Source of the DNA: Candidatus Iainarchaeum sp.
Lineage (GTDB): Archaea; Iainarchaeota; Iainarchaeia; Iainarchaeales; JACQJH01
NCBI GenBank assembly: GCA_016205145.1
Contig: JACQJH010000001.1
Coordinates: 90,001 to 122,000, forward strand
Direction: 5' to 3'
Length of the DNA: 32,000 bases
Under the pieces are notes generated by a model. The model was not told where the DNA came from. It saw nothing but the letters and a program-made list of their open reading frames with translations, and did no database searches. Below, one piece after another: positions 8,409 to 32,000 of the stretch (its first letter is position 1; every line of letters starts with the position of its first letter). The translations under genes and the position numbers were made by a program.

Positions 8409-10781
8409 ATGAACGCACGCCTTGTTTTTGTCCTGCTGCTTGCGTTGCTTGCATTGGCTGGCTGTGCCGCGGTCGACAAGAAGACAATCGAGGCGTTCAA
8501 GGCAATTCCTGAAGTGCAGTCTTTTCTCGCGCAGAACCCCGATGCGCAGGTAACAGGCTATTCGCTTGACAAGCTGACGGTTGAAGGGTCCAAAAAGGAG
8601 CTCCTGAAGCAGTGCCCTGACCTGGAAATCAAGGACTATTTCCTGGTTTCGGCGAAATCCAAGGACGAAAGGCTTGAGGCATTGCTTGACAGGAAGTCAA
8701 GGGAAGTTGCCTGCATTTTGCGCACTAAAACCGCGAGGTGCGCCCTGGACGACTTCAAGTGCAGTGAAAGCGCCGGTCAGGGACAGGCAAAGCCGAAGTG
8801 CGTGGAAGGCGAGGTTTTGTGCAGCAACCAGTGCGTTGTCCCGTTGTGCGCATCTAACAGCGAATGCAACGACAATGACGCCAAAACCACTGACACGTGC
8901 AGCAGCGCGGGCAAATGCAATGCGAAATGCTCCAACAAGGAGGTGACCTGCAGGCCCAACCAGCTTTTGTGCAACGGCGCGTGCAAGAATGTTGCGTGCA
9001 GGGAGGACAAGGACTGCAATGACAGGGAAAGCCTTACAACTGACAAGTGCAGGAAACCGGCGTCATGCGAATCCTTCTGCGAAAACACGCCTTCAAGATA
9101 CCCGGTAAAAGTAAGCGTGCTGTCCGTTGACGATTTTTCGCCCAAGGTTGACGGCCCAATCAGCATTTTTGTCGGAGTAGCCAATCCTGACAACCACCAG
9201 TTGCAGTATACCCTGTTTGCCGGCAAGAAGGCGTTTTCAAACGTTGCCGCCATCAAGACGACAATCCTTGATTCAGGAAAGCAGAAAATCAAGGCGGTAA
9301 TCCACGACGTTGAAGCGGACGAGAACGTTTCCAAGGAAATCGAAATCAATGTGCGGCCGGCAACCGCAACTTCCCTGTGCGCGATTGACGAGAACTGCGA
9401 CGACGGCATAGACGGATCAGTCGACAAGTGCGAGAAGGCAGGCACCTGGGATGCACTGTGCAGGAACACTTACGCTGATTCTTCGCAAAAAGCGCTTCCA
9501 TCGATAGCGGGCTTTTCAAAGGCAAAAACCGAAAGCCTGAAATGGATTGAAGGCGGAACAAAAACCGTTTACTCGAAAGGCGGCGTGTCGGTTGAAGTGC
9601 TTGTCCTGCCGCTCAAAAACCATTTCCTGGCACTGGATTTTGCTTCAAAAAGCCTTGACACGTTCCAGAAAAAAACCTTTGTCGACGAAAACGGCGGCTA
9701 TTTCACTGCAAGCTATTTCACCTATTCAAAGGTTTTCTGGGTATCCGGCAACAACGCTGTAGCAGTAATGGCCCTGAACAAGGAAAAAGTCGACCTGGAG
9801 CAGTTCAGGAGCGCGCTCTTTGAAGTGCTTCCAAGCAATTCTGCTGCGCAGGGCATCTGCAGGCGCGGCGAGATTGCCTGCAACAACGAGTGCATCAAGC
9901 CTGTCTGCGTTAAGGATCTGGACTGCAATGACAAGAACACTGGCACTGATGACAGGTGCGAGAAGTCAAACAGCTGTGAAGCGGAGTGCAAGCATTCTGA
10001 TTTCGCTTTGCCTCCCGCCATAGACTATGTTTCATCGGATGTTTTCCGGCCAAATGCCGGGCAGAACTTTTCAGTCGCAATGTCCGCTGTCAGCGTTTCC
10101 GGCAACGCCCTGGATTACTCGATTGCCTTCGGGTTGAACGAGTTCAAGGGCAAGCCATCCGCAACGAATTGGTTTTCAAAAGCAGGCAAGCAGAAAGTGA
10201 AGCTGACTGCAAGAGACGTTGTTTCGGGAAAAACAGCAGTCAAGGAGCTTGAATTCAATATCCTTGCCACCACCGCGGCGCCGAGGTGCACTGCGGATGC
10301 CAACTGCTCCGACGGCATAGCAACGACAATCGATTACTGCCAGGGTTCAGGCACCGCCGGCTCGTTCTGCAAGAACATCCCTGAGACCAGCGAGGAAAAG
10401 CAGTTTGCCCCGAAGCTCGGCGGTTTCAAGCTTTCGGTTTTGCCGGACGTCGTTTTCCCGGTCCCGGCAAGAAAAGCGGTTTACGAGAACAACGGCCTGA
10501 AGGCGGAGGTTTTCATAGCTGAATTTGAAAGCCACGAGCGCGCTCTCGATTTTGTTTACAACGGCCTGAAGACCTTCCCGAAAGAGGGAACCGAAACTTT
10601 CAAGCAGAGTTTCGGCGGCTACTTCCAGCGCAGTTACCTGTCTTACCGCAAGGTTGCATGGGTTTCCGAGAACAAGGCAGTGCAGGTTTCGTCCTACAAC
10701 GCGGAAGCGCTTGACCTCAACGCCTTGTCCGACTATTACATGATAAATTATCCGAGCAAGACAGCCCAGCCGGCAAGCTAA
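8409..10781 (+). CDS. secreted Cys-rich lipobox protein with an internal ~300-aa duplication
   Basis: 790 aa. Signal plus lipobox: MNARLVFVLLLALLALAGC. Three 8-Cys modules (e.g. CRPNQLLCNGACKNVACREDKDCNDRESLTTDKCRKPASCESFCEN). The unit 8-Cys module / Ig-like segment / short 4-Cys module / alpha-beta domain occurs twice (8949-9836 and 9858-10760). Confidence 0.75.
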   Translation: MNARLVFVLLLALLALAGCAAVDKKTIEAFKAIPEVQSFLAQNPDAQVTGYSLDKLTVEGSKKELLKQCPDLEIKDYFLVSAKSKDERLEALLDRKSREVACILRTKTARCALDDFKCSESAGQGQAKPKCVEGEVLCSNQCVVPLCASNSECNDNDAKTTDTCSSAGKCNAKCSNKEVTCRPNQLLCNGACKNVACREDKDCNDRESLTTDKCRKPASCESFCENTPSRYPVKVSVLSVDDFSPKVDGPISIFVGVANPDNHQLQYTLFAGKKAFSNVAAIKTTILDSGKQKIKAVIHDVEADENVSKEIEINVRPATATSLCAIDENCDDGIDGSVDKCEKAGTWDALCRNTYADSSQKALPSIAGFSKAKTESLKWIEGGTKTVYSKGGVSVEVLVLPLKNHFLALDFASKSLDTFQKKTFVDENGGYFTASYFTYSKVFWVSGNNAVAVMALNKEKVDLEQFRSALFEVLPSNSAAQGICRRGEIACNNECIKPVCVKDLDCNDKNTGTDDRCEKSNSCEAECKHSDFALPPAIDYVSSDVFRPNAGQNFSVAMSAVSVSGNALDYSIAFGLNEFKGKPSATNWFSKAGKQKVKLTARDVVSGKTAVKELEFNILATTAAPRCTADANCSDGIATTIDYCQGSGTAGSFCKNIPETSEEKQFAPKLGGFKLSVLPDVVFPVPARKAVYENNGLKAEVFIAEFESHERALDFVYNGLKTFPKEGTETFKQSFGGYFQRSYLSYRKVAWVSENKAVQVSSYNAEALDLNALSDYYMINYPSKTAQPAS

Positions 10782-10985: not shown

Positions 10986-11948
10986 GTGAAAAAAACAAGG
11001 ACGATTTTTATTCCACTAATACTGTTTGCCGCATTGGTCTTTGCGGGCTGCACACAGGCAAACGAAAAAACGGGTTTGCTGACACTCAGCGCCAACGAAC
11101 GCGTAAACATTCTTGACGGTGACAGGTACTGGTCATTAGGAGCAGGAAAAGCCGACGGCATAACAGGACAACCGTTGCAGGACACTTCAACAATCTACCC
11201 CGGCTCATTTTCAATAAGAGACCTCTGGGTGCAAAAAGACAGATTATTCATTGACAGAACCGGCAGAATCGGAATCGGAACAACAGCCCCAGAAGTCAAA
11301 CTTGACATAAAAGAATCCGACCAAACATACCCGCCCTTAAGAATAACCAACACGAAAAACGATGGTTACGCAGGCATCGTCTTTGGCACAGATAGCGGCA
11401 TACAAGGGCACATGGGAGCCGCAGGTTATTATGCTGCCAATCAAAAGCTGAGAAACTCCGTTTATTTCGGGTCGACAGGGGACAAAAGAGTGGTAATAAC
11501 CGCAAACGGGATTCCCAGGATGTTCATTGAGCCGACATACTTTCAAAGCTTTATAACAAATTCGCCAGATGCAAATGGATCTACATCCTTTTCTGCCTCA
11601 ACGACCATGACTGCCGGAAACCAAGGAAGAGGAATATATTTTAGGGTAATGGATATTCAGGGAACTCGGACAGCATTGAGCGTCTCATTAGATGCAGGGG
11701 GGTCCACCGGAGTTTTCAGCGTAAACGCCCAAAAACTGGAAACAAGTGGCGGTACTTCATTCACGGCACCACAGACCGCCTTGTCTGTAACACCGGAAAC
11801 AATAAGGTTAACATTACTGAATGGCGCAAGAATAAAGATAGCGTCCTCCGCACCGGCTAACAGGCAGCTTTGTATTACTGGACAGCAAGAATTGGGTTTC
11901 TGTTCGAGTGTAAATGCGGATGGTACGTGCACATGCGTGCCAGTTTAA
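10986..11948 (+). CDS. lipobox surface protein with a tail-fibre-like GIGTT motif; paralog of 31240-32000
   Basis: GTG start 7 nt after GGAGG. MKKTRTIFIPLILFAALVFAGC is a signal plus lipobox. Contains DRTGRIGIGTTAPEVKLDIKESD and a C-terminal 4-Cys motif CITGQQELGFCSSVNADGTCTC. A 200-nt stretch is ~90% identical to the inverted copy at the window end. Confidence 0.7.
   Translation: MKKTRTIFIPLILFAALVFAGCTQANEKTGLLTLSANERVNILDGDRYWSLGAGKADGITGQPLQDTSTIYPGSFSIRDLWVQKDRLFIDRTGRIGIGTTAPEVKLDIKESDQTYPPLRITNTKNDGYAGIVFGTDSGIQGHMGAAGYYAANQKLRNSVYFGSTGDKRVVITANGIPRMFIEPTYFQSFITNSPDANGSTSFSASTTMTAGNQGRGIYFRVMDIQGTRTALSVSLDAGGSTGVFSVNAQKLETSGGTSFTAPQTALSVTPETIRLTLLNGARIKIASSAPANRQLCITGQQELGFCSSVNADGTCTCVPV
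11217..11416 (+). repeat. left arm of an inverted repeat pair (partner 31796-31995)
   Basis: Hand alignment of 11217-11416 against the reverse complement of 31796-31995 gives 19 mismatches in 200 nt, with identical runs up to 32 nt (gacataaaagaatccgaccaaacatacccgcc). Confidence 0.85.
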
Positions 11949-16813: not shown

Positions 16814-18424
16814 GTGGATCAAAACCTTCCAAAAGGCCAGTCCGCCATAGAATATCTTTTGCTGTTGGGCGCCGCGATTTTGATTGCCGCGGTTGTCGTT
16901 GCCTTGATTATTTTTGTGGGTTCCGGGGGCAAGCAGTCGGCGCAAAGAGGGTCGCAGACTGTTGCTGTAGCGCAGGGGAATCTTTCCAAATCCCTTGGCC
17001 TGCCAGGCCCCATCACCGACCGCGGCGGCGGAATTTTTGATTTGAAAAAGGATTTTGGCGCGAAAGGCGACGGGGTTTCCGACGATTATGAATCGTTCAT
17101 TGCTGCTGCGGCCAAGCTGAGCGGTTCGACTGACGCAACGCTTGTCATTCCTGCAGGGGACTATAAGATTGACCGGTACAAGATTTTGGCTGCGACTTCC
17201 GACGGCAGGCTTCCAAATGGCGTAACCGACATCAAGTTTTCCGGATGCAACGGCCTGGAAATTGTCGGCTTGGGAAAGGACGCATCGGGAAACTACAAGG
17301 CAAAAGTCGAGGTCAAGGGCGACTTTTACAGGTCGGCGGACCGCAGTGCCGTCAATGCCGCGGGCGTGACGGTGTGGAGTTCCAATTCCGGTTCGGTCAC
17401 GCCGTTTTATTTCGATCACTGTAACGGATTTTCCATTTCCGGCTTGGAATTGTACGGCAACAACGACAAGATGTCGCACGATCCGCGCGTCAGAGAACAC
17501 CCGTCAGGAATGGGCATTGCGACTTATGGCTGCAAAAATTATTCGATTTCCGACATTTTTGTGCACAACTTCCAGACGGACGGCATTTACCTTGGCGGCT
17601 CGGCAAGCCCCGTGGATTCGGGCGCAACCGTTGACGGCGTGGTTTCAAGCAGCAACGGCAGGCAGGGCCTCAGCATAATTCAGGTGAAAAACTCGACAAT
17701 AAAAAACAGCGTTTTCAAGGACACCGGCATTACGGGCGGAAGCGACACAGGATATAATCCGAGGGCCGGCGTTGACATCGAGCCGAACGTGAACGTCCCC
17801 AACATAACCGAAAATCTTGTTTTTGAAAACGACGAGTTCAGCAACAACCGCGGCTACCAGATTGTTTCAAGCGCTTATGTTGGCGGAATCGTGGTCAGGA
17901 ATTCAAGGGTTTTTTCGGGAAACCAGCGCAAGCTCGCCTATTTCAGGGTGAACGGCATTACAATCGAGGGCTCCGAATTCAAGACTTCTGCAAGGGAGTT
18001 TGCCCAGGACTGGGACAAGAGCGGATTCGGGGTCACTCTCATGGCGGGCGGAACCGCGCTTATAAAAAACAATCTCATAGAGGCATCCTCGTTGGCGTAT
18101 CCTGTGAAAACCGTTGGAATCCACAGGCCTTACGTGCACTTCTTTTCGGGAAGCGGGATAACCTTTGCGGGCAACAGAATTTCCACCGACTCAAGCTTTT
18201 TTTATCCCATTTCAGGGCAGGCTTATGACACCGCAATTTATTTGAACGTCGGCGAATCCTCGAACAACACTTTTTCGACCGGCATGACCGGCTTAAACCA
18301 TTTCGCAGTCGTTTACGGCCCGGCCACAAAAGTCGTTTCAGACGCGTTTTTGCCGCGGGACAATTTCAGGCCGCAGCCGGGATATGTTTGGACTGGCGCA
18401 GGCAACTCTTATTCGCAGAACTGA
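16814..18424 (+). CDS. class III (prepilin-type) signal peptide fused to a right-handed beta-helix, pectate-lyase-superfamily domain
   Basis: GTG start. N-terminus MDQNLPKG/QSAIEYLLLLGAAILIAAVVVALI (basic residue-Gly, then Q at +1, E at +5, then a hydrophobic helix). Followed by FDLKKDFGAKGDGVSDDYESF..VIPAGDY and repeated PbH1-like turns: NGFSISGLELYGNN, YSISDIFVHNFQTDGIYLGG, GLSIIQVKNSTIKNSVF, LVFENDEFSNN. Confidence 0.8.
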   Translation: MDQNLPKGQSAIEYLLLLGAAILIAAVVVALIIFVGSGGKQSAQRGSQTVAVAQGNLSKSLGLPGPITDRGGGIFDLKKDFGAKGDGVSDDYESFIAAAAKLSGSTDATLVIPAGDYKIDRYKILAATSDGRLPNGVTDIKFSGCNGLEIVGLGKDASGNYKAKVEVKGDFYRSADRSAVNAAGVTVWSSNSGSVTPFYFDHCNGFSISGLELYGNNDKMSHDPRVREHPSGMGIATYGCKNYSISDIFVHNFQTDGIYLGGSASPVDSGATVDGVVSSSNGRQGLSIIQVKNSTIKNSVFKDTGITGGSDTGYNPRAGVDIEPNVNVPNITENLVFENDEFSNNRGYQIVSSAYVGGIVVRNSRVFSGNQRKLAYFRVNGITIEGSEFKTSAREFAQDWDKSGFGVTLMAGGTALIKNNLIEASSLAYPVKTVGIHRPYVHFFSGSGITFAGNRISTDSSFFYPISGQAYDTAIYLNVGESSNNTFSTGMTGLNHFAVVYGPATKVVSDAFLPRDNFRPQPGYVWTGAGNSYSQN

Positions 18425-18483
18425 CGTTTGCCTTTTGTGCACTTGGGCGTGCCAAAGGATTTAATTTGTGTGAATGATATTTG

Positions 18484-20031
18484 ATGGTGAAACCGATGTT
18501 TTCCCGTGGCCAGTCCGCAATCGAGTATCTGCTGTTGCTTGGCGCCGCGATTTTGATTGCCGCGGTTGTCGTTGCCTTGATTTCTTTTGTGGGTTCGGGC
18601 GGAAAGACTTCGGCGCAGGAATCAGGCGTGCAGCAGAGGCTGGCAATGCAGAACCTTGCGGCTGTTGGGGGCATGGGTTTCTCCTATTCCTGTGTTGCTA
18701 ATGGTGTCTGCGAAGCCGATGAAACAATGCAGTCCTGTTCCGCGGACTGTGCTGGCAAGCCTTTCAGGCAGTACCTGCATTTTTATTCGGCGGAGGCGGG
18801 GGGTTCTGAGGTTTCTTCCGTGCCGGCGCCCATGCTTAACGTGCCCGCTTCGGGTTTGCGGCATTATATCTATGTCGAGCTTTCCGAAATGCACGGGCAT
18901 CTCAGTGTTTACCGTTCCGCCACCGTAAACAATGCGAATAACCGGTCTGTCGCGCTTTCACCCGGCGAAATCGACGCGCTGTTCAATCTTTACGGCGTGG
19001 AAACGGGCAATCCTGTTAGAGGGAAGAGCATGAACATGAGCATACTGCAGCGTGCCGACGTGCAGAAAATCCATCATGAACTTGCACAAGGCAATCCTGC
19101 GTATAATGCAAAGTACGGCAATGGCGGCCTGGAAACAGGGGTCGGGCTTGACGGTTCCGGAATGCCCGTTCTTGATGCTTCCGACAAGCTTGTGCCGGAC
19201 AGACCGGTACAGGATTACCAAGACGGCAAAACAATGCTGTGGCCGTTTTACTACAATGCCAGCGGCAAGCATAAGATGAGGGTTCTCTGGAACCTTAACA
19301 GCCCGGCGGTCAGGGAATATCTTGTGCGGTACGGCGTGAAAACCGCCTCTTTCAGTCCAAGCGGCGACCTGTTTATTGACAACACTATTTTTCCGGGCCA
19401 GGTGCTGGAGGATTATTCATATGTTTTTTCAGGTGCAAGGAACGGCCTTGCGGCGCATCTTTCCGGCATTACATTGGAAATTCGGGCAGAAATCGTGAAA
19501 CGGCTTGACGGAAAGGGGCTGATAATGAACGCTCTCAGGTTCACAAACTCCGACAATGAGATATTTTCTGATGCTGTTGTTGATTCCGGCCAGTTTGACG
19601 GTTTGATGGCCGAAAACCAGTTTTGGCGTGATGGCATTGCCATTGGCGGTTCTCCAAGGGGTGCGACGTCCGTTGCATGGTACCGGGATTTGACGCAGAA
19701 AATGAAATCAAAAGGCAAAAAGATTCTTTTTACGGCCTCCGGCTCCGGTTTTACGCGGGCTGATCCCTCAAAGATTTTGCCAGTTTGGTTATGGTTGCAC
19801 TTGGTTGCTGATGACAGCACGTATTTTCTATTGCCGGGCAATGGAGCCGATGGCGATTCGTTTGATAACCAGTTCCTTCCGTTTGTTTTTCCGCTCGGCT
19901 ATCCGCTTGACCAAGCACCGGTGCAGGACGGCAGTGTGTGGAGCAGGCGCTATGAGCGCGGCACGATTGTTTTTGACATTTCAAGCGGAAGGCTTGACGC
20001 CATAAGGTTCGAGGAAAACCCGCCCGGGTGA
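18484..20031 (+). CDS. class III (prepilin-type) signal peptide fused to a Cys mini-module and a GH-like domain; paralog of 26452-28209
   Basis: N-terminus M(VKPM)FSRG/QSAIEYLLLLGAAILIAAVVVALI; alternative ATG at 18496. 18541-18582 is 42/42 identical to 16868-16909. CVANGVCEADETMQSCSADC is followed by ~430 aa collinear with the 26452 gene (SGQFDGLMAEN, WLWLHLVADD, GYPLDQAPVQDGSVWSRRYERGTIVFD). The enzymatic family is not confidently named. Confidence 0.8.
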   Translation: MVKPMFSRGQSAIEYLLLLGAAILIAAVVVALISFVGSGGKTSAQESGVQQRLAMQNLAAVGGMGFSYSCVANGVCEADETMQSCSADCAGKPFRQYLHFYSAEAGGSEVSSVPAPMLNVPASGLRHYIYVELSEMHGHLSVYRSATVNNANNRSVALSPGEIDALFNLYGVETGNPVRGKSMNMSILQRADVQKIHHELAQGNPAYNAKYGNGGLETGVGLDGSGMPVLDASDKLVPDRPVQDYQDGKTMLWPFYYNASGKHKMRVLWNLNSPAVREYLVRYGVKTASFSPSGDLFIDNTIFPGQVLEDYSYVFSGARNGLAAHLSGITLEIRAEIVKRLDGKGLIMNALRFTNSDNEIFSDAVVDSGQFDGLMAENQFWRDGIAIGGSPRGATSVAWYRDLTQKMKSKGKKILFTASGSGFTRADPSKILPVWLWLHLVADDSTYFLLPGNGADGDSFDNQFLPFVFPLGYPLDQAPVQDGSVWSRRYERGTIVFDISSGRLDAIRFEENPPG

Positions 20032-20108: not shown

Positions 20109-20357
20109 ATGAATTTGACCGTCAATTTTTCCGGCCACGTTGAAGACGTAATTGAACGCCTCGTTGAAAAAGGCGTTGTCAAAACGAAATCCGAAGCGCT
20201 TCGGCTTGGCATTCTGAAGCTTGAAGAGCAGTATCTGCGCAGCCTTGACGCAGATGACCTGATTTTGGCTGAAAAGGCATGGGATGATTTCAAAGCAGGC
20301 AAGAACAAATCTCTGTCGGAAAGGGAGTTCTACTCTAAAACAGGCCTGAAAAAATGA
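20109..20357 (+). CDS. putative antitoxin (ribbon-helix-helix-like) of a RelE-family toxin
   Basis: 82 aa from ATG 20109; the track ORF starts at 20028. MNLTVNFSGHVEDVIERLVEKGVVKTKSEALRLGILKLEE has a strand-helix-helix pattern. Its stop overlaps the toxin start (ATGA, 20354-20357). Confidence 0.6.
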   Translation: MNLTVNFSGHVEDVIERLVEKGVVKTKSEALRLGILKLEEQYLRSLDADDLILAEKAWDDFKAGKNKSLSEREFYSKTGLKK

Positions 20358-20605
20358 GTTTTGAAGCGGTTTTTCTTGAATCTTTTGCCGATGACGTGGC
20401 AAGGCTTGACGGCAGCCAAAAAACGCTTGTTGAAAAAAGGCTCCGCAGGCTCACTGCAAACCCGTTTTCCGAAAAGCCACTTCACGGCCAGAAACGGTTT
20501 TGGGCTTCGAGGATCCTGAACCTGAGAATAATTTACCGCATTGAAGGGCAAAAAATATTTTTTGCCAGGGTTTCAAGCAGGAAAGACGTTTACAAAAACC
20601 TGTAG
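20354..20605 (+). CDS. relE: RelE/ParE-superfamily type II toxin
   Basis: 83 aa. FADDVARLDGSQKTLVEKRLRRLTANPF..PLHG....SRILNLRIIYRIEGQKIFFARVSSRKDVYK matches the RelE/StbE pattern (...RiiY.i......i..v.hRkdvY). Confidence 0.8.
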   Translation: MSFEAVFLESFADDVARLDGSQKTLVEKRLRRLTANPFSEKPLHGQKRFWASRILNLRIIYRIEGQKIFFARVSSRKDVYKNL

Positions 20606-21665: not shown

Positions 21666-23285
21666 TTATTTTTTGCCAATGCGCTCCAGCTTTTCATCCG
21701 CCTTCTTTTCCGCTTCCAGCCTTTCCAGGCCCGCGCCTTTCTCGTAGACGAATTTCATGAGTTCGAAGACAAGCGGGGTCGCCTTTTTCGCCTGATGGAA
21801 CATTTCGATTGAAACCCTTCGGTAGTCGGCGTGTCCCTGCGGCGTCGACCTCAGCTCAACCAAGTGGTACATTTCACGCGCGTTGAGAGTGAAATACCAT
21901 CTTATTTTGTACGCGAGCGGGACAACGTATTGTGCCTGCAACGGCATTTCCTTCGCGATTTTATCGTAAGTTTCCTTCGCTCCTGCCATTGCCTTTTCAA
22001 ATTCCTTCAAAACGCCCGCCTTTTCCAGTTCGGGATAAGTGTCATAGCCGAAGTTTGCCGTCAAAAGCTGGCGTTCCTGTGTAAGCTGGCGATGTCGGTG
22101 CAAGTCACGGAAGCCGCCGTAATTTGAGAGCAAGTCGAAAGTGTAGTATGCGTTTTCGAAGCTTCGCAAAGGCTTGTGCCTGCGGTTCTGCCTGTGCGCA
22201 AGAGATGCATGGATGACTTTGCGCTTTTCCTCTTCGCCCATTGCGGCAACGATTTTTTTGAGCTGGTGCAGGGGCTTGTCGCTGTGCGCGTAAAGCAGCG
22301 CGCAAACGATTTTGTTGTCGGCTTCCATGTCAAAGTCGACCAGTTCCACTTCCTTTGCCTGCTCCGCATGTTTGCCTGCAAGCAGTTCTTTTGCGGTTGC
22401 GTCAAGGTTTGCGTTCGCCTGCCTGAAAAAATCCTGTGTCGGGCCGCCGTATTTTCCGGCCGCGCGCTTGACGAAAGAAGGAATGTAAGTCAAAAGCTCT
22501 TCGTGCAATGAAGAAGCGATGCCGTTGATTTCCTTCAATGGCGAGGCGTGCATTTTGAGTATGAGGTATTCGAACGCCCTGCCATTGCCGTACAGGCCGA
22601 GGTTTGTCAGCGTTGAAGCAGGCAGGAGGCCGCGCAGGAGGTCGCAGGTTTTAGCCTTGATTGTCGACTTGTACGCGCGGTCGGTTGTCTCGGAGTCCTG
22701 CGGAAACCATTCCTCGGCCTGTGTTCTCACTTTCGGCACGAGTTCGGCGTACGTGCCGAACAGCAAATCGCACGTTTCCACGTAATCCTTTTCGAATGCC
22801 GACTGCATTATGCCAGGCTCGAGCAGGTACTGGTATCGGCCGCCCTCTTTCTCGTCAAAGTAAACGTAGCGCGTGCTTTTTTCCAGGGGGGAGAGGCCAA
22901 TGCGTGAATCCTCGAGGACTTTGCTTGCGATGATTGAAACCTTTTCGCATGCGACGTGCGCTCCGCCTAATTCCGCGACGGAATCGTCGCCGTAGCCGAC
23001 CAGAACGCGGTCGTAAAACTCTTCGGCTTTCTTGGTTGCGATTGCCTGCTGTTCTCCGTTTCCAAGTGAATAGTTGACGATTTCCCGGAAGCCGGATTCC
23101 TTGTCGGCAATGAATTCGTCGAGCAAAAGCCTGCGCAATGGTTTCGGCGAGCGCGAATAGCGCGAGAACAGTGCGCCTGAAACGACTTCGGGCAGGTTTT
23201 TGAGGACAAAGACGTTTTTGTCCATGTTCGAAAAAAACGGTTCCAGGATTTTCCGCTCTTCCGAGGAAAAAGAATTTTCCGCCAT
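21666..23285 (-). CDS. long-form ThyX-like (Thy1-fold) protein, putative FAD-dependent thymidylate synthase
   Basis: 539 aa. The C-terminal half has FRDLHRHRQLTQERQ and TLNAREMYHLVELRSTPQGHADYR, which align with the ThyX RHR motif and NxRxLxxxxxLR...H/Q region. N-terminal GALFSRYSRS suggests a second, degenerate copy. Confidence 0.6.
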   Translation of the reverse strand: MAENSFSSEERKILEPFFSNMDKNVFVLKNLPEVVSGALFSRYSRSPKPLRRLLLDEFIADKESGFREIVNYSLGNGEQQAIATKKAEEFYDRVLVGYGDDSVAELGGAHVACEKVSIIASKVLEDSRIGLSPLEKSTRYVYFDEKEGGRYQYLLEPGIMQSAFEKDYVETCDLLFGTYAELVPKVRTQAEEWFPQDSETTDRAYKSTIKAKTCDLLRGLLPASTLTNLGLYGNGRAFEYLILKMHASPLKEINGIASSLHEELLTYIPSFVKRAAGKYGGPTQDFFRQANANLDATAKELLAGKHAEQAKEVELVDFDMEADNKIVCALLYAHSDKPLHQLKKIVAAMGEEEKRKVIHASLAHRQNRRHKPLRSFENAYYTFDLLSNYGGFRDLHRHRQLTQERQLLTANFGYDTYPELEKAGVLKEFEKAMAGAKETYDKIAKEMPLQAQYVVPLAYKIRWYFTLNAREMYHLVELRSTPQGHADYRRVSIEMFHQAKKATPLVFELMKFVYEKGAGLERLEAEKKADEKLERIGKK

Positions 23286-26417: not shown

Positions 26418-26492
26418 CTGTTTTAAAAAACCTTTCAGGGCAATCGTTTTTATGCATCCAAGCGACGCCATCAAGGGAACCGCGTCAAAAAG
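26418..26492 (+). repeat. direct repeat copy A: promoter plus first 13 codons (partner 28245-28320)
   Basis: ctgttttaaaaaacctttcagggcaatcgtttttatgcatccaagcgacgccatcaagggaaccgcgtcaaaaag is ~84% identical to copy B, with an identical 21-nt core cgtttttatgcatccaagcga. The TATA-like ttttaaaaaa (26421-26430) lies ~26 nt upstream of the conserved ATG at 26452. Confidence 0.85.
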
Positions 26493-28209
26493 ATTTTTCA
26501 TGCCGCATTTGAAACCGGTTGTTGTCTGCGCATTTGTGTTGCTTGTTTTGCTTTCCGGTTGCACCGCCACAAAAAGCAAAGGCGTGGAAAAGCCGGTTGA
26601 TTCCGACAAAAACTTTTTGGATTCAAACCAAGCCAAGTCCGCGCCCGAAACTGGCGGGCCGCGACAGCCGCCAACCACGGAATTGGTTGCTGAACAACCG
26701 GACGCCAATGTTCCGGATGCAAACGCCGGCGCACCCGACGTGAATGCAGCGGCTGCTGTCGTGTTTTGTAACCGGAACGGCGCCTGCGACACAAACGAGT
26801 CCGCGGTTTCCTGTCCGGCCGATTGTGCCATTCTTTCCGGAGGCGGAGGAGGCGGCAATTCGCCACAGCCGCCGTCAGGAAACGATAGCGGTTCGTGCAA
26901 TTCGGACGGCGCATGCAACGGAAACGAGGACACAGCTTCATGCCCTGCTGACTGCAGTGTAAGGCAGTTCAGGCATTATTTGCGGTTTTATGCTTTGGAT
27001 TACTATAATCGGTTTTCAACAAAGCCGCCGGCGCCGGAAGGGCTGGTTGAATTCACCATCACGCAGGGCACGCCTTTTGGCAACCTGCAGGATTATACTC
27101 ATTTTAATGTGACGGATTCCGGCCATGTTGTTTTGACAACTTCCACTGCGCCCAAAACTCTTGTTGCGTTGAGCCAAAGCGAGCTTGACGGCTTGTTTGC
27201 GCAGTATGGTTTTGGCGGGGATAAAAACAACATCTATTCTGGCGTGATTGCAAGGGCTGAAGTCGGGAAAATCCATGAGGAACTTGTAGAACGCCATCCG
27301 GAGCTTTTTCCGAACGGCACTGAATTGTTTGTCGGCGCCGTCATAGGGCCGGACGGGTTGCCCGAGCTCGTGGACAACTTTCCGGTCAGGGAAAGAAGCG
27401 ACATTGCCGACTACCAGCTTGGCAAAACAATGGTTTACCCGCTTCCATATTCGCCGGTCGGCTACGGGCGGTACCGGACGCTTTGGAATCACGGCAGCTG
27501 GGCGGTCAGGGTATATCTTGCAAGAAGGGCCAATAAGCTGGTGAATGGCGTTCCAGGCGTGGAGAATATTTTTTTGGATAACGTGCAATTGCCGGCTTAT
27601 ATCAAATATCTTGGCTCCCGTGTTGGTTCGGTTCCGGTGCCAAATTATGTTTCGCCCGGAAGCAGGGATGAACAGTTTGCTGTTTATGCGAACAATTTTG
27701 TTTCGGTTCTTACTGCCGTTCGCGTAAAAACCGGCGCAAAAATGCTTCTTAACGGTTTGTATGAAGTGAAGGCTAACCAAAGCATTTTTTTTCAAAAACT
27801 AATTGCGTCCGGCCAGTTTGACGGCCTTATGACGGAAAACGGGTTTTTTGCTGACGGCGTGGAAAACAATTTGGGCGGCAGCGCGGCAAGCGTGCAATGG
27901 TACTGGGATCAGGTGCAGTGGTTGAAGCAAAACGGCAAAAACGCGGTTTTTTTGGCGGGCGGGAAGGACGCTTCGAAGGCATCCAAGGCCTGGCTTTGGG
28001 TGCATTTAGTTGCTGACACCAATGTTTTCTTTTCGACCAATCCCAATGAACATTTTGACGTTTACGATTCTCCTTTGGGGTATCCTCTTGACCAGGCTCC
28101 GGTAAAAAACGGCAGCGTGTGGAGCAGGCGCTACGAGCGCGGCACGATTGTCTTTGACGTTTCGGGCGGAAGGCTTGACGACATAAAGTTTGTCGAAGGC
28201 CCGGCATAG
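26452..28209 (+). CDS. lipobox-anchored GH-like protein with two Cys mini-modules; paralog of 18484-20031
   Basis: MHPSDAIKGTASKRFFMPHLKPVVVCAFVLLVLLSGC; alternative start at 26500. FCNRNGACDTNESAVSCPADCA, a GGGGGG linker and CNSDGACNGNEDTASCPADCS. The body is collinear with the 18484 gene (SGQFDGLMTEN, WLWVHLVADT, GYPLDQAPVKNGSVWSRRYERGTIVFD). Confidence 0.8.
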   Translation: MHPSDAIKGTASKRFFMPHLKPVVVCAFVLLVLLSGCTATKSKGVEKPVDSDKNFLDSNQAKSAPETGGPRQPPTTELVAEQPDANVPDANAGAPDVNAAAAVVFCNRNGACDTNESAVSCPADCAILSGGGGGGNSPQPPSGNDSGSCNSDGACNGNEDTASCPADCSVRQFRHYLRFYALDYYNRFSTKPPAPEGLVEFTITQGTPFGNLQDYTHFNVTDSGHVVLTTSTAPKTLVALSQSELDGLFAQYGFGGDKNNIYSGVIARAEVGKIHEELVERHPELFPNGTELFVGAVIGPDGLPELVDNFPVRERSDIADYQLGKTMVYPLPYSPVGYGRYRTLWNHGSWAVRVYLARRANKLVNGVPGVENIFLDNVQLPAYIKYLGSRVGSVPVPNYVSPGSRDEQFAVYANNFVSVLTAVRVKTGAKMLLNGLYEVKANQSIFFQKLIASGQFDGLMTENGFFADGVENNLGGSAASVQWYWDQVQWLKQNGKNAVFLAGGKDASKASKAWLWVHLVADTNVFFSTNPNEHFDVYDSPLGYPLDQAPVKNGSVWSRRYERGTIVFDVSGGRLDDIKFVEGPA

Positions 28210-28244
28210 GTCAGCCGTTTTGTTCGCTGTTTGTCGTATCCGCG

Positions 28245-28320
28245 CTGTTTTAAAAATCCTTTTCCGGCCATTCGTTTTTATGCATCCAAGCGAAGCAATC
28301 CGGGCTTCCGCGTCAAAAAG
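28245..28320 (+). repeat. direct repeat copy B: promoter plus first 13 codons of coaBC
   Basis: ctgttttaaaaatccttttccggccattcgtttttatgcatccaagcgaagcaatccgggcttccgcgtcaaaaag. The TATA-like ttttaaaaa (28248-28256) lies ~28 nt upstream of ATG 28280. Confidence 0.85.
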
Positions 28321-29482
28321 CCTTTACGGAAAGCTCATAGTGTTGGGAGTTTCATCAAGCATTGCCGCAGTGAAGACTGTTGAAATTGCAAGGGAACTGA
28401 TCAGGCACGGCGCGGAAGTGCAGGCAGTGATGTCAAAGGGCGCGGAAGACATCATTGCGCCGGGGGCGCTGGAGTTTGCCACGGGGAAGCCTGTCATAAC
28501 GCATCTCAGCGGAATGGTCGAGCACGTCGACCTGTTCGGAGCGCATGGAAAAGCCGATTTGCTTTTGTTGTGCCCTGCAAGCGCAAACGTGATTGGAAAA
28601 ATCGCGAATGGCATAGCTGATGATGCCCTGACAACCATTGCAATGACTGTTGTTGGGGTGAAAAAGCCAGTCCTGGTCTGCCCGGCAATGCATTTGGAAA
28701 TGTGGCAGAACACTGCCGTCAGGGTGAACGTCGAAAAGCTTGGCGTGCTGGGCGCGGAATTCGTGCCGGCGAAAAGCCTTGAAGGCGCGGAAAAAATCGC
28801 GGACAAGGAAACGATTGTGCTGTTTGTGGAACGGGCGCTTTCCGGCAAAAGGCTTGCAGGCAAAAAGGTTGTCGTTTGCGCCGGCGCAACGCGCGAGGAA
28901 ATCGATCCCGTGCGCGTGCTGACAAACAAGGCATCGGGAAAAACCGGCGAGGAAATCGCAAAAGAGGCTTTCAGGCAGGGCGCACAAACCACACTTATAC
29001 ATAATCGGGATTGTTTTGTTTCCGGCATCAAATGCGTGCAGGCGCAAACCATCGAGGAATTCCGCAAGGCAATCCTTTCGGAGCTTGAAGGCGCGGATGT
29101 TTTCGTCTCGGCGGCGGCAATCGGCGATTTTGTAGTGGAAAAGGCGAAGGACAAGCTTGCTTCGGAAAAAGGCGTTGAATTGAAGTTCAGGCCCGCCCCT
29201 AAAATCCTCGCGGAAGTCGTGAAGAAATTTCCCGATTTGTTCGTTGTCGCGTTCAAGGCGGAAACGAACAAGGGGACGGAAGAGCTTGAAAAAATCGCAA
29301 AGGAAAAGCTGAAGGAACTGAAGCAGGGCTTTGTGGTTGCGAACGACGTGGCACATGGTGGAATGGGAACGGATGAAAATTCGGTTTTGATCGTCGGCAA
29401 AAACTTTTCGGAAAGCGTTTCAGGAAAGAAAAGCCTGATTGCCAGAAAAATCGTGGAAAAAATTGAATGCGGTCTGCCATAA
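28280..29482 (+). CDS. coaBC: bifunctional phosphopantothenoylcysteine decarboxylase / phosphopantothenate-cysteine ligase
   Basis: 400 aa from MHPSEAIRASASKSLYGKLIVLGVSSSIAAVK. CoaC region: PASANVIGKIANGIADDALT. CoaB region: VCAGATREEIDPVRVLTNKASGKTG and AAAIGDF. The start is chosen at the conserved ATG of repeat B rather than the track start 28190. Confidence 0.9.
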   Translation: MHPSEAIRASASKSLYGKLIVLGVSSSIAAVKTVEIARELIRHGAEVQAVMSKGAEDIIAPGALEFATGKPVITHLSGMVEHVDLFGAHGKADLLLLCPASANVIGKIANGIADDALTTIAMTVVGVKKPVLVCPAMHLEMWQNTAVRVNVEKLGVLGAEFVPAKSLEGAEKIADKETIVLFVERALSGKRLAGKKVVVCAGATREEIDPVRVLTNKASGKTGEEIAKEAFRQGAQTTLIHNRDCFVSGIKCVQAQTIEEFRKAILSELEGADVFVSAAAIGDFVVEKAKDKLASEKGVELKFRPAPKILAEVVKKFPDLFVVAFKAETNKGTEELEKIAKEKLKELKQGFVVANDVAHGGMGTDENSVLIVGKNFSESVSGKKSLIARKIVEKIECGLP

Positions 29483-29596
29483 TTTCCTTTGCGGAACCAA
29501 TTGTTTCACCAACCGAAAATGTCGGCACTGCCCGCCGCTAGGTTAACTGCCATATTTATATAGTACTTTGTTTCATGCTAATTTCGTTGTCTGCAA

Positions 29597-31009
29597 ATGC
29601 CGGCCGCGGTTGGAGTTGATTCGTTGAAAAAAAGCATGTTTTTCGTTTTGCTGTTTTTTGGTGTTGTTGTTTCGGGCTGCCTTCAAACTGACTCTGAAAA
29701 AGCCGCCATTGAGCTTTCAGCTTCGACTGTTGAAGGAAAACTCGCCAAGACCCTGATGGAATCGCTGAAAAAGACAGGCGAGTGCAGCGTATCGGATTAT
29801 GCCGGGGTTGCCGGCCCGGCCAACCCGCTGATAAGAAACATGGGCTTTAACGTTTCTCTTCCGACACAGGAGACCGAAGCCGCCGAATTGGTTGAAAATG
29901 CAAAAGAATGCAATGTGCAATTGCTGCGGAACGTTTTGGAAGTCGAAAAGGACAAAAAATACCAGGTCAACTACACTGCAAAAGTTGACAGTTCCTGCAA
30001 ATACTCCGGCCTAAAACCGGTTTTGTCGGCTTATATTTTGACGATTTCGGTCGACCTTGAGGAAAAAACAGCGGTTGTTGAAAAGGGAAAGCTTAAGGAC
30101 AGCATTGCACAGCAGGTATCAGAGTTCCAGCCGGCTTTTATGCTCATGGGAAAGTGCGCGGCTCCAATACTGCTCGGCATTGGATTTTTCGGGGACTTTT
30201 TGGGTTCAGACAGCGGCCCGGGCTTAGACGGCGGTCCAGACGAAGGGGAAAAGATAGCTTACGGCTTTGACGCTTTCTGGGATGATTCGAAACAAAACCC
30301 GATTCAGCTGTCGTGGAATCACGCCCAAAGTGACGGCCAGTACTATGTCGCAATTGAAATGTGGGCCACCGGCAACAGTTCGCCGCTTGGTTCAATTGAA
30401 ACGACCATAGAGAACTTAAAGGACGGCCCGGCGTTCCCGTTGGGCCACGTTTTCAGTTATGACCTGGACGGCGGGGAAATTTATTATGGCGGGCAGCTGT
30501 CATACCCGCACGAATTCAAGGTCGATGCCTATCTTTTGGACAGTGAATACAGCATTGTGGAAAAGTTCGGCTACAAGGAATTTTCAATTGGCGCGCCCCA
30601 ACAGCAGGAGGCGCCGGATGCAGCAGGCGTTGTTTCGAATTTTGTTGCAAGATGGGACGCCGAAGACAGCCAGAACCCCCTGAAGTTTACATGGGATTTT
30701 GTTCCGCAGGGCGGCCAGTATTTTGTGGCGCTTGACATGTGGAATACCGGCAACAGTTCGCCGCTTGGTTCGATTGAAATGACCATAGAGCGGTTAAAGG
30801 AGGGCTCGCCGTTCCCGTTGGGCCATGTTTATGCCGCGGAAGACGGAAGCGGCTCGCTTTATTGGGGCGGGCAATACACTTATCCGGACGTGTTCAGGAT
30901 ACACGCATACCTCTTGGACGAATCATATGATTTGGTCGGGGAAACAGCGTATGTTGAATTGACAAGAAACAATGCTGACGAAAGCCCGACATCGGTTCCC
31001 ATCGGATGA
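29597..31009 (+). CDS. lipobox protein with a C-terminal tandem 126-aa repeat
   Basis: 470 aa. ...KKSMFFVLLFFGVVVSGC is a signal plus lipobox; an in-frame TTG at 29624 is an alternative start. Two repeat units share W(D/N)xxQxxGQY(Y/F)VAx(E/D)MWxTGNSSPLGSIExTIExLK(D/E)GxxFPLGHV...YxGGQxxYPxxFxxxAYLLD. Confidence 0.75.
   Translation: MPAAVGVDSLKKSMFFVLLFFGVVVSGCLQTDSEKAAIELSASTVEGKLAKTLMESLKKTGECSVSDYAGVAGPANPLIRNMGFNVSLPTQETEAAELVENAKECNVQLLRNVLEVEKDKKYQVNYTAKVDSSCKYSGLKPVLSAYILTISVDLEEKTAVVEKGKLKDSIAQQVSEFQPAFMLMGKCAAPILLGIGFFGDFLGSDSGPGLDGGPDEGEKIAYGFDAFWDDSKQNPIQLSWNHAQSDGQYYVAIEMWATGNSSPLGSIETTIENLKDGPAFPLGHVFSYDLDGGEIYYGGQLSYPHEFKVDAYLLDSEYSIVEKFGYKEFSIGAPQQQEAPDAAGVVSNFVARWDAEDSQNPLKFTWDFVPQGGQYFVALDMWNTGNSSPLGSIEMTIERLKEGSPFPLGHVYAAEDGSGSLYWGGQYTYPDVFRIHAYLLDESYDLVGETAYVELTRNNADESPTSVPIG
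30260..30964 (+). repeat. tandem intragenic repeat, two units (30260-30589 and 30638-30964), period 378 nt
   Basis: Core blocks at 30371-30452 and 30749-30830 are ~88-90% identical at the nucleotide level (ggcaacagttcgccgcttggttc.attgaaa.gaccatagag...gttcccgttgggcca.gttt). Confidence 0.8.
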
Positions 31010-31239: not shown

Positions 31240-32000
31240 TCACTGGCAGCCGCACGTGCCGTCAGCGTTCGGCGCGGTCGAGCAGACGCCGAGCTTATTG
31301 TCCGGGGTAATACACACGATTTTGTTTCTTGCCCCGACCTGGAAGCCGGTGGTTGGCCTATGCCCTCTGTAGCTAAGCAATACGTCTCCGCCCAGCTCAA
31401 TTTGCTTCGCGTCGAGAAAAATATTGCTTTTGCGGCCAACGTAACCGCTTGCCCCATTATTTTCCATGGTAATGCCGGCATAATCATTTGAGCCGGCACT
31501 GCCGGACGGCGCAACAAACTGTTCGTTGCCCTGCTGTCGCAGTTCTATTCTATCGGCACTCACTGAGATACTTGAGTACAAAATGTTTCCGTCTGTCAGG
31601 GGTTGTTTCCGGTCTTCCATGTAAATCCCCCTCTGCACGTGATTTGGCATCCCAGTATTAAGCGATGAGTTCAAGCGAATATATGTAAAACCGTCGGCAT
31701 TTTTCGTCGCTATTTTGGTTGGAATGTCGGCATTTGTGCTGCCAAAATAGACCGAGTTTCTAAGCGTTTCGTTCGCCGCGTTCGGCCCGGCAACGCCCAT
31801 GTGCCCTTGTATGCCGCTGCCCGTGCCAAAGATGAGGCCAGCGTAACCGTCGTTTTTCGTGTTGGTTATTCTGAGCGGCGGGTATGTTTGGTCGGATTCT
31901 TTTATGTCGAGTTTTACTTCCGGTGTTGTGGTTCCGATTCCGATTTTGCCGGTTCTGTCAACGAATAATCTGTCTTTTTGCACCCAGAGGTCCCTGATTG
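31240..32000 (-). CDS. tail-fibre-like GIGTT-motif protein, paralog of 10986-11948; 5' end beyond the window
   Basis: The reading frame stays open to the window edge (..IRDLWVQKDRLFVDRTGKIGIGTTTPEVKLDIKESDQTYPPLRITNTKNDGYAGLIFG...). The C-terminal CITPDNKLGVCSTAPNADGTCGCQ has the same 4-Cys motif as the paralog. The Met at 31983 in the track is internal, judged from the paralog alignment. Confidence 0.7.
   Translation of the reverse strand, partial: IRDLWVQKDRLFVDRTGKIGIGTTTPEVKLDIKESDQTYPPLRITNTKNDGYAGLIFGTGSGIQGHMGVAGPNAANETLRNSVYFGSTNADIPTKIATKNADGFTYIRLNSSLNTGMPNHVQRGIYMEDRKQPLTDGNILYSSISVSADRIELRQQGNEQFVAPSGSAGSNDYAGITMENNGASGYVGRKSNIFLDAKQIELGGDVLLSYRGHRPTTGFQVGARNKIVCITPDNKLGVCSTAPNADGTCGCQ
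31796..31995 (-). repeat. right arm of the inverted repeat pair (partner 11217-11416)
   Basis: See the left arm: ~90% identity over 200 nt in inverted orientation. Confidence 0.85.

Follow-up and report, generated by a model that had tools for sequence, protein, structure and literature searches.

Gene arrangement at the coaBC locus

The window, i.e. the whole 32-kb stretch of a 613-kb contig that was analysed here, stems from the MAG of a Candidatus Diapherotrites representative (DPANN archaeon). It harbors the gene coaBC and, directly upstream on the same strand, a gene for a glycoside hydrolase (GH)-like protein, each with a conserved ATG inside its own copy of a direct repeat. The relevant features are the following:

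18481-20031, forward strand: paralogue of the GH-like gene within the window, 516 aa, with a type-IV-pilin-like N-terminus, without lipobox and without a repeat copy (family HMM, E = 3e-108; 36% identity, E = 5e-81)
26418-26497, forward strand: repeat copy 1, derived from the promoter and first ~13-16 codons of coaBC, 5' of the GH-like gene (82.7% identity to 28245-28325)
26421-26430, forward strand: TTTTAAAAAA, TATA-box-like, centred 26.5 nt 5' of the ATG at 26452 (sequence reading; transcription start predicted)
26445-26465, forward strand: 21-nt exact core of copy 1, -7 to +14 around the ATG (two matches in the window, none expected)
26452-28209, forward strand: chimeric ORF, 585 aa, MBI4052514.1, HY394_00575, 'hypothetical protein' (the NCBI annotation starts at the same ATG)
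26500-26562, forward strand: second in-frame ATG and presumed native signal peptide MPHLKPVVVCAFVLLVLLSGC with the lipobox LSGC (direct reading)
26767-26958, forward strand: two Cys-rich modules (C..G.C...E...SCPADC) and a Gly/Pro-rich linker (one module also in the paralogue)
26950-28206, forward strand: predicted TIM-barrel GH-like domain, related to GHL15, GH114 and endo-fucanase (profile and fold searches)
28245-28325, forward strand: repeat copy 2, parental coaBC promoter and first ~15 codons (native status from comparison of CoaBC homologues)
28248-28257, forward strand: TTTTAAAAAT, TATA-box-like, centred 27.5 nt 5' of the ATG at 28280 (sequence reading)
28273-28293, forward strand: 21-nt exact core of copy 2 (core search of the window)
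28280-29482, forward strand: coaBC, 400 aa, MBI4052515.1, phosphopantothenoylcysteine decarboxylase / phosphopantothenate-cysteine ligase (Flavoprotein and DFP domains, TIGR00521)

The arrangement of the repeats is no assembly artefact, because each of three separate Logan assemblies (SRR12113383, -84, -85) matches the window without a difference over the two copies. Contigs of SRR12113383-85 were the only ones returned by exact-protein look-ups, which used the protein of the cassette between the repeats, CoaBC, the 1008-aa protein upstream and the 470-aa protein downstream; all of these contigs carry the cassette or are cut, and no empty-site allele was found among them.

The direct repeat and its core

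The two copies measure 80 and 81 nt and share 82.7% identity over 81 columns, with 13 mismatches and one 1-nt indel (MAFFT and BLAST). The pair was recovered with E = 2e-14 when the window was compared with itself by BLAST, and a repeat search of the window called it at 26421-26497 and 28249-28325. A preliminary description of this DNA had reported an element of 75/76 nt with about 84% identity, which agrees with 64 identical positions out of 76 over that span, as well as an identical 21-nt core containing an ATG. This core, CGTTTTTATGCATCCAAGCGA, is indeed exact in both copies; it occurs at two sites in the window, still at two if up to three mismatches are allowed, and never in 100 shuffles of the window. 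Relative to the conserved ATGs at 26452 and 28280, the whole element extends from about -34 to +46, and the shared N-terminal residues that had been claimed for both proteins are encoded as MHPSDAIKGTASK and MHPSEAIRASASK, respectively.

No significant homology was detected beyond approximately 26497 and 28325 or 5' of 26418 and 28245. For a downstream extension p values between 0.02 and 0.3 were obtained, varying with the window used for the comparison. On the upstream side, a 27-nt block lying 28 nt out of register (p = 0.008) was rejected, because it is unconvincing after multiple tests and coincides in part with a C-terminus found natively in the GH-like family.

Within the element, identity clusters in three blocks, namely the TATA-like box (12 nt), the start (21 nt) and positions +31 to +43 (13 nt), with the box (12/12) and the ATG region (21/21) being the best-preserved parts of copy 1. 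A 21-nt identical run is unremarkable at 83% identity, and the seven amino-acid differences between the encoded peptides look conservative, but not significantly so against random substitution (p = 0.13-0.21). Constraint on copy 1 is not statistically supported, the comparison comprising just two copies with 14 differing positions among 81. The divergence of about 17% furthermore indicates that the duplication was not a recent event.

Origin of the upstream copy

CoaBC matches TIGR00521 with 337.1 bits (cut-off 219.7, E = 1.5e-100) and contains the domains PF02441 (6.7e-29) and PF04127 (2.3e-46). Since the TIGR00521 alignment begins only at residue 17, the first 16 residues represent an archaeal-type extension. 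The homologues of CoaBC are archaeal, the next closest one being 52% identical, and an extension of the MHPS type proved to be present in other members of this group as well: the N-terminal motif HP(S/T/A)xxIxGxxSxxLxGK was found in 44 of 120 archaeal homologues, six of which, including the closest relatives, start with MHP. In contrast, the HP[STA] motif was seen in none of the 46 proteins related to the GH-like protein, which begin directly with signal or anchor sequences. The motif is thus native to archaeal CoaBC and foreign to the relatives of the GH-like protein; therefore, copy 1 derives from coaBC, and the earlier proposal that the promoter and 5' end of coaBC were captured by a duplication can be upheld with coaBC as the donor.

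Promoter-like boxes and predicted leaderless transcripts

Each copy contains a TTTTAAAAA box centred approximately 27 nt 5' of the conserved ATG, at the distance of 26-28 nt that had been noticed before. Archaeal TATA boxes are centred about 26-27 nt 5' of the transcription start, and on leaderless archaeal transcripts the 5'-terminal AUG is the start codon used. In addition, there is a T-A step at the ATG. The spacing corresponds to the geometry of an archaeal TATA box followed by a leaderless mRNA, and the mRNAs of both genes are probably leaderless. The same -27/-28 spacing of the box was found at other genes in the window (659-1345 and 3950-5425), which suggests that leaderless genes are common here. 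In the coaBC loci of the three relatives examined, an A/T-rich box is situated about 25-40 nt 5' of the MHP(S/A) start. TATA-like boxes with comparable spacing occur at other genes of the window as well, but without any of the extended repeat sequence; within 32 kb the element does not represent a common promoter consensus, the finding that the preliminary description had named as speaking against its reading.

The chimeric GH-like ORF and its protein family

In the chimeric ORF, 16 codons that come from or adjoin the coaBC copy are followed in order by the signal peptide of a lipoprotein, a linker rich in Cys and the GH-like domain. Its second ATG at 26500 lies 3 nt past the end of repeat copy 1 in the same frame, and no Shine-Dalgarno-like motif exists in the 20 nt 5' of it. 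The N-terminal part contains KRFFMPHLKP-VVVCAFVLLVLL-SGC with the LSGC at residues 34-37, so that it shows a positively charged n-region, a hydrophobic h-region and the lipobox pattern [LVI][ASTVI][GAS]C, and a lipoprotein signal peptide is predicted from these features; in the extended form its n-region comprises 22 residues, which is long for a lipoprotein. A similar lipobox, VSGC, is found in the neighboring gene at 29597-31009. The proteins downstream of the two repeat copies are unrelated, as had been stated: CoaBC and the lipobox-bearing (LLSGC) GHL15-like protein show no similarity beyond approximately codon 16.

A k-mer-prefiltered homologue search with the GH-like protein found only the protein itself, and the family was built by an exhaustive HMMER search (47 representatives). 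GHL15 is matched by 22 of 27 family members (best 2e-12), some members also match the Pfam family Cu-binding_MopE, and the family profile matches the PDB entry 9f9v (4e-12) and the GHL15 structure 9nhf (4e-6). The protein from the window itself scored 21.5-22.5 bits with Pfam GHL15 (PF14885), which is below the 27-bit gathering threshold and covers its C-terminal 40 residues only. A fold search with its AlphaFold model (pLDDT 88.7) returned 9f9v and PbFucA (8rg3) with probability 1.0, at TM-scores of only about 0.5-0.57. Judged from profiles and the predicted fold, the protein is best regarded as a distant relative and not as a demonstrated member of GHL15.

The preliminary description had also spoken of GH-like paralogues. 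This holds insofar as a paralogue exists at 18481-20031, but it is not the adjoining 1030-aa gene, which gave no match to the GH-like family. At the 3' ends of the two paralogues the nucleotide identity reaches up to 86% in the last ~30 codons; the amino-acid identity rises as well, hence selection and gene conversion are inseparable at this site.

How the GH-like gene might have acquired its promoter

The explanation that we regard as probable is that a segment of about 81 nt with the promoter, start and 5' codons of coaBC was duplicated to the front of the GHL15-like surface lipoprotein gene, which would borrow its promoter and start from there. The duplicated segment would comprise a basal archaeal TATA-like promoter, the transcription and translation start, and the first ~13-16 codons of coaBC. 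Ending in frame and 3 nt ahead of the lipoprotein's own ATG, the copy would most likely provide an active promoter, from which a leaderless transcript is made and translated from 26452, and the GH-like protein would carry a short CoaBC-derived peptide, by which the n-region of its signal peptide becomes longer. Because promoter and start codon are inseparable in leaderless genes, a captured promoter brings the first codons along. The copy could have arisen by a small dispersed duplication or template switch, or by a tandem duplication with subsequent deletion. Loss of the cassette by recombination between the repeats, as proposed before, would be plausible; the cassette is present in all three population assemblies.

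A rather unlikely alternative is that a promoterless GH-like ORF (about 26498-28244) was inserted as a cassette after approximately codon 15 of coaBC, whereby the 81 nt upstream of it came to lie on its other side as well, be it as a long target duplication or through a repair that restored an intact coaBC. Either copy could then be the original promoter, and the present structure and functional outcome would be the same as after duplication of the promoter segment, only the history differs. Such an insertion would account for the exact bracketing of the GH-like gene by the two copies, and at peptide positions 8-10 copy 1 (IKGT) resembles the CoaBC family consensus more than coaBC itself does (IRAS). 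It would also be in line with the coaBC loci of P0002, P0116 and P0004 (42-52% identity), which have other neighbors 5' of coaBC and no GH-like gene there, a comparison that is silent on the ancestral state. However, we know of no insertion mechanism that yields a target duplication of about 80 nt. Moreover, no integrase, recombinase or transposase domain was detected in the scanned ORFs of the window and no terminal inverted repeats were found in it, while the paralogue 6.5 kb away in the same locus favors local duplication and shuffling of surface-protein genes over import.

From the sequence, the upstream copy could also be a decaying relic. In this case, which we consider improbable, the GH-like gene would be translated from the ATG at 26500 with the MHPSD... 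peptide lying outside the protein, and its transcription would depend on read-through of the 1008/1030-aa gene upstream, or the copy would serve only as promoter plus a 48-nt 5' UTR. The peptide MPHLKPVVVCAFVLLVLLSGC alone makes a canonical signal peptide, selection on the copied peptide is not significant, and the upstream gene on the same strand is only 74 nt away from the GH-like gene, all of which would suit a relic. Against it stand the full preservation of the TATA-like box and the ATG region, the 16 codons that remain open and in frame, the lack of a Shine-Dalgarno-like motif in front of 26500, and the use of the 5'-terminal AUG on leaderless transcripts.

A still lower probability is given to the cis-regulatory reading that the preliminary description had considered for the co-regulation of the two genes. 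Here, the element would be a module under selection, such as a transcription factor site or a 5' RNA element, that is kept for the joint control of coaBC and the hydrolase-like gene and might belong to a larger regulon. The three blocks of identity and the location of the copies at two adjacent genes on the same strand might be read in this way, but nothing beyond a shared basal promoter speaks in favor of it and the block pattern is within chance at 83% identity. Neither an Rfam match nor a conserved stem was found for the element, a 5-bp stem that is possible in copy 1 being broken in copy 2; the other genes of the CoA pathway in the window (coaE and PPAT-like genes, 1431-2475) are without the element, and its part 3' of the ATG is already accounted for by the conserved N-terminal peptide of CoaBC. 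Finally, it is very improbable that the repeats are attL/attR-type sites at which a mobile element carrying the GH-like gene was integrated site-specifically. Direct repeats with an identical 21-nt core do surround a single accessory-type gene. However, no recombinase, integrase or transposase was detected in the scanned ORFs of the window, which also lacks a tRNA gene, the frequent target of such elements; outside the core, the two repeats have diverged by 17%; and an att site would leave unexplained that the left repeat is functionally placed as promoter and start and fused in frame. Moreover, the core was not found in two large public collections, neither of which includes the source MAG (a 25-nt pattern gave no match in public genome contigs and the 21-mer none in JGI metagenome contigs). 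The copy number of the element refers to the 32-kb window; further copies might exist elsewhere, in which case the element could be dispersed or mobile.

Implications

The duplication of the coaBC promoter segment fits the known reuse or capture of promoters and is, though real, not an extraordinary case; its special trait is the probably leaderless archaeal setting. It provides a clean natural example with an identifiable donor and direction of copying, and it illustrates that under leaderless mRNAs the start and first codons captured with a promoter would become part of the recipient protein, here of the signal-peptide n-region of a lipoprotein. For annotators of DPANN genomes this means that a seemingly mis-called 5' extension may be a true captured start. 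The wider importance hinges on whether a genome-wide survey finds more, since the present case is a single one with two copies, described from sequence.

Several other short patches of about 85% identity are common to otherwise dissimilar surface-protein genes in the window, and these patches hint that short-patch copying might be frequent in this genome. That short duplications of a promoter plus N-terminal codons are a recurrent route in DPANN archaea to activate and diversify surface-protein genes is a speculative idea with a small chance to hold. If true, promoter, transcription start and start codon would form one indivisible unit in archaea with leaderless mRNAs, new or relocated genes would be switched on only by copying the promoter together with codons of a neighbor, and the leftover direct repeats would make such surface-protein genes reversibly deletable.

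Comparison with known systems

The predicted GH-like domain resembles the GHL15 / GH114-like TIM-barrel hydrolases; the 419-aa C-terminal domain of the cassette protein belongs to a small family of which most members match GHL15. It differs from the Pfam family GHL15 in that the protein of the window itself is under the cut-off, and a role as hydrolase is putative.

Regarding the promoter, the arrangement resembles the reused or putative mobile promoters (Matus-Garcia, Nijveen & van Passel 2012, NAR). According to the account in PMC3575422, these are pairs of similar sequences (identity of 80% or more across 50 nt or more) that precede unrelated coding sequences of one genome. The repeat pair has 82.7% identity over 81 columns, the downstream coding sequences (CoaBC and a GHL15-like lipoprotein) are not paralogous, no recognised mobile element is involved, and the expected effect is a rewired transcription. 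However, as described in the same account, the survey scored the region from -150 to -50 relative to the start codon and dropped pairs whose similarity runs into the coding region, whereas the element reported here is located at about -34 to +46 and runs through the start codon and ~13-16 codons, a difference that would result from the leaderless-type architecture. Further differences from that account are the archaeal host, the probably leaderless mRNAs, and the two known copies being 1.8 kb apart.

In the rnk-citT case from the E. coli long-term evolution experiment (Blount et al. 2012, as cited in PMC3575422), a head-to-tail duplication of about 3 kb, in which the captured gene itself was duplicated, likewise set a gene under the promoter of its neighbor at the duplication junction and left the donor gene intact. 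Here, only 81 nt were duplicated, the 1.75 kb between the copies and with it the GH-like gene are single-copy within the unit, unlike in a tandem duplication of the rnk-citT type, and the junction is an in-frame protein fusion; moreover, the event is old, given the 17% divergence, and was not watched in real time as in the cited experiment. Finally, as in chimeric genes formed by partial 5' gene duplication, a regulatory region together with the first codons became fused to an unrelated gene body, but here the ~13-16 donated codons contain no domain and just extend the n-region of the signal peptide. The gain from the fusion, if any, would hence be in expression signals and not in protein function.

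A short repeat at the start of two unrelated genes

Direct-repeat search, MAFFT and a self-BLAST of the window agree on one repeat pair, which is associated with the following features.

26418-26497: repeat copy 1, 5' end of the GH-like gene
26421-26430: A/T box of copy 1, TTTTAAAAAA
26452: conserved ATG of copy 1
26452-28209 (+): GH-like gene
28245-28325: repeat copy 2, 5' end of coaBC
28248-28257: A/T box of copy 2, TTTTAAAAAT
28280: conserved ATG of copy 2
28280-29482 (+): coaBC

The copies align over 81 columns at 82.7% identity (13 mismatches, one 1-nt indel; E = 2e-14), and past these 81 nt no convincing homology was found on either of the two flanks examined. The preliminary description had reported a 75/76-nt element here; it is confirmed at its place, with 84% identity over that length. 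Its identical 21-nt core, CGTTTTTATGCATCCAAGCGA, occurs at exactly two sites in the 32-kb window, even when up to 3 mismatches are allowed, and had no match in 100 dinucleotide-preserving shuffles. Chance or assembly error as the source of the repeat is excluded; the structure is not an assembly artefact, because three independently assembled contigs (SRR12113383, -84 and -85) are identical to the window over both copies. It was also correctly recognized that an A/T box lies upstream of each ATG, the centres being at -26.5 and -27.5 nt, and that the genes behind the two copies are unrelated; they are coaBC (TIGR00521) and a gene for a distant GHL15-like protein.

Exact protein look-up identified the two products as MBI4052514.1 (HY394_00575, "hypothetical protein", 585 aa, annotated start ATG 26452) and MBI4052515.1 (CoaBC, 400 aa), both from a 612,963-bp contig of a Candidatus Diapherotrites archaeon MAG.

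The coaBC copy as the parental one

What lies behind copy 2 is an ordinary coaBC gene, whose product scores 337 bits against the TIGR00521 cut-off of 219.7 and contains Flavoprotein and DFP domains. The peptide encoded by its repeat copy, MHPSEAIRASASKSLYGK, is not peculiar to this genome. HP[S/T/A] plus xxIxGxxSxxLxGK stands before the Rossmann-type IVLGVTGSIAA motif in 44 of the 120 best CoaBC homologues, which all seem to be archaeal. The alignment to the bacterial-type model TIGR00521 begins only at residue 17. An exact MHP start is found in six of these 44, the closest relatives among them (P0002 MHPSQEI..., P0004 MHPAEAIKG..., P0011 MHPAEEIRG..., P0116 MHPSEAIKA...). In contrast, an HP-type start is missing from all 46 GH-like relatives; there, signal or anchor sequences come first. 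Hence, judged from these homologues, 28245-28325 is the parental copy, and 26418-26497 was duplicated from it, taking in promoter and 5' end of coaBC; the earlier idea that these were captured is supported. At positions 7-10 the IKGT of copy 1 is nearer the family consensus than coaBC's own IRAS; therefore, at least some of the divergence arose in coaBC itself, or the copy was donated by a slightly different allele of that gene.

At window ~29047-29554 (contigs L002, L003, L008 and L009) the Logan contigs of two of the three samples end within coaBC or shortly behind it, while SRR12113383 assembles through; strain-level variation or low coverage at the locus could be responsible. Genes for CoaE (dephospho-CoA kinase) and a cytidylyltransferase-like (PPAT-type) protein overlap each other at 1431-2475 (-), 26 kb from coaBC.

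The chimeric GH-like gene and its family

The GH-like gene is built of four parts:

Part 1: 16 codons from, or adjoining, repeat copy 1
Part 2: in-frame ATG 26500, opening a canonical signal peptide with lipobox (MPHLKPVVVCAFVLLVLLSGC)
Part 3: low-complexity linker with two Cys-rich modules
Part 4: C-terminal domain, 419 aa

The C-terminal domain appeared to be an orphan in a word-indexed homologue search; exhaustive HMMER search placed it in a small family with 47 representatives (E <= 1e-3). Pfam GHL15 matches 22 of the 27 aligned family members (best 2e-12), and the window protein itself reaches 21.5-22.5 bits, under the 27-bit cut-off. Solved structures hit by the family profile are 9f9v (4e-12) and the GHL15 protein 9nhf (4e-6), besides GH114 proteins and endo-1,3-fucanases; for a confident AlphaFold model (pLDDT 88.7, pTM 0.90) the top folds are 9f9v and the fucanase PbFucA (probability 1.0, TM 0.5-0.57). 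Because of these family, profile and fold matches the label GH-like is justified for what is predicted to be a distant TIM-barrel hydrolase-like relative.

Its in-window paralogue is ORF 18481-20031 (36% identity, E = 5e-81), which has a type-IV-pilin-like N-terminus in place of the lipobox; the adjacent 1030-aa LamG-containing gene was rejected for this role. At the paralogues' ends (28081-28200 / 19900-20020) the last ~30 aligned codons are identical at 26/30 aa, compared to ~36% overall, with 86% nucleotide identity and 70% at third positions; either gene conversion or very strong constraint on a C-terminal beta-hairpin could explain this.

Proposed working of the copied promoter

Archaeal TATA boxes are A/T-rich and centred ~27 nt before the ATG when the transcript begins at or within 1-2 bases of the start codon, i.e. 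when the mRNA is leaderless. In this archaeon the A/T boxes of both copies would be TATA boxes of probably leaderless mRNAs. TATA-like boxes occur at -27/-28 in other window genes (659-1345, 3950-5425) and at -35 to -40 in still others, and the coaBC genes of three relatives show an A/T box ~25-40 nt ahead of their MHP(S/A) start. The element is not a common promoter consensus in the window, where the other genes with a TATA-like box lack the extended sequence.

In a leaderless gene, promoter, transcription start and start codon form one compact unit, so that a promoter copy of working size carries the ATG and a few codons along. Probably the duplicated coaBC promoter drives the GH-like gene and ATG 26452 is its translation start, with promoter activity, transcription start and start codon being what we infer from the sequence; the CoaBC-derived residues would then lengthen the n-region of the signal peptide. 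Copy 1 ends at 26497, in frame with the lipoprotein's own ATG and 3 nt short of it, and direct reading found no Shine-Dalgarno-like motif before 26500.

It could also be that copy 1 is a decaying relic and that the gene is expressed from ATG 26500. The copied peptide shows no statistical evidence of constraint (p = 0.13-0.21), as this reading would have it, although two copies give no power to detect selection; however, the TATA box (12/12) and the start region (21/21) are the best-kept parts of copy 1. A selected co-regulatory element common to both genes is less likely, and nothing speaks for it beyond the shared basal promoter; Rfam gave no match, no stem is conserved, and the element is absent from the window's other CoA-pathway genes, coaE and the PPAT-like gene. 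An origin of the repeats as attL/attR is unlikely, the window containing no integrase, transposase or tRNA gene.

The copied promoter might have arisen by template switch or small dispersed duplication, by a tandem duplication after which one gene copy was lost, or by the ORF having been inserted into the 5' end of coaBC and coaBC then restored. The nearest CoaBC in the databases searched shares 52% identity, and the relatives' coaBC loci have different neighbours. The repeats could plausibly recombine and so delete the cassette, with a functional hybrid 5' end of coaBC being left behind; the exact-protein-match look-ups, with all matches from one site, contained no deletion allele.

Other repeats and genes in the window

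Self-comparison of the window revealed several more short, ~85%-identical patches between otherwise dissimilar surface-protein genes, which hints that short-patch copying may be common in this genome. A further reading of low probability starts from this hint: copies of a promoter with its first codons would repeatedly switch on surface-protein genes in DPANN archaea. A 110-nt patch (16835-16944 / 18508-18617, 85% identical) is common to the 5' coding regions of two surface-protein genes that adjoin each other but are otherwise unrelated: 16814-18424, which is beta-helix/pectate-lyase-like, and 18481-20031, the GH-like paralogue. In both, the patch specifies one and the same N-terminal segment of type-IV-pilin-like character, GQSAIEYLLLLGAAILIAAVVVALI.FVGSGGK. 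A 259-nt inverted repeat (31742-32000 / 11212-11470, 85% identity) connects an internal stretch of gene 10986-11948 with the 5' part of gene 31240-31983 (-), which possibly continues past the end of the window; both genes lack Pfam matches.

Downstream of coaBC, the 470-aa lipobox protein 29597-31009, without Pfam or NCBIfam match, contains an internal direct repeat (30334-30541 / 30712-30919, 74% over ~210 nt) indicating a tandem domain duplication. Weak internal direct repeats (9274-9796 / 10183-10717 and 8941-9055 / 9850-9964, 59-63% identity, spacing ~909 nt) inside the 790-aa ORF 8409-10781, which has no Pfam match, point to a repeated domain architecture of another putative surface protein. 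The ThyX gene 21666-23285 (-) is unusually long (539 aa), and its two matched Thy1 stretches suggest that it is duplicated or fused. Between the GH-like paralogue and a DapB-like gene, two small ORFs of 82 and 83 aa (~20109-20605; L002 1557-2053), one with a weak ParE-toxin match, may be a toxin-antitoxin pair.

Comparison with known promoter capture

The closest described phenomenon is promoter reuse by "putative mobile promoters", defined as upstream pairs at least 80% identical over at least 50 nt before unrelated genes of one genome (PMC3575422). The present pair agrees in identity and in the unrelated genes but differs in position, because it spans -34 to +46 relative to the start codon, whereas that survey covered -150 to -50 and explicitly filtered out promoters extending into coding sequence (PMC3575422). 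Promoter capture as in rnk-citT (cited in PMC3575422) is similar, but there the unit is a multi-kb tandem, while here the duplication is limited to 81 nt and the fusion at the junction is in frame. Hence, promoter reuse as such is already known, and the present case adds one instructive twist, in that a leaderless architecture would force the first codons to be transferred together with the promoter.
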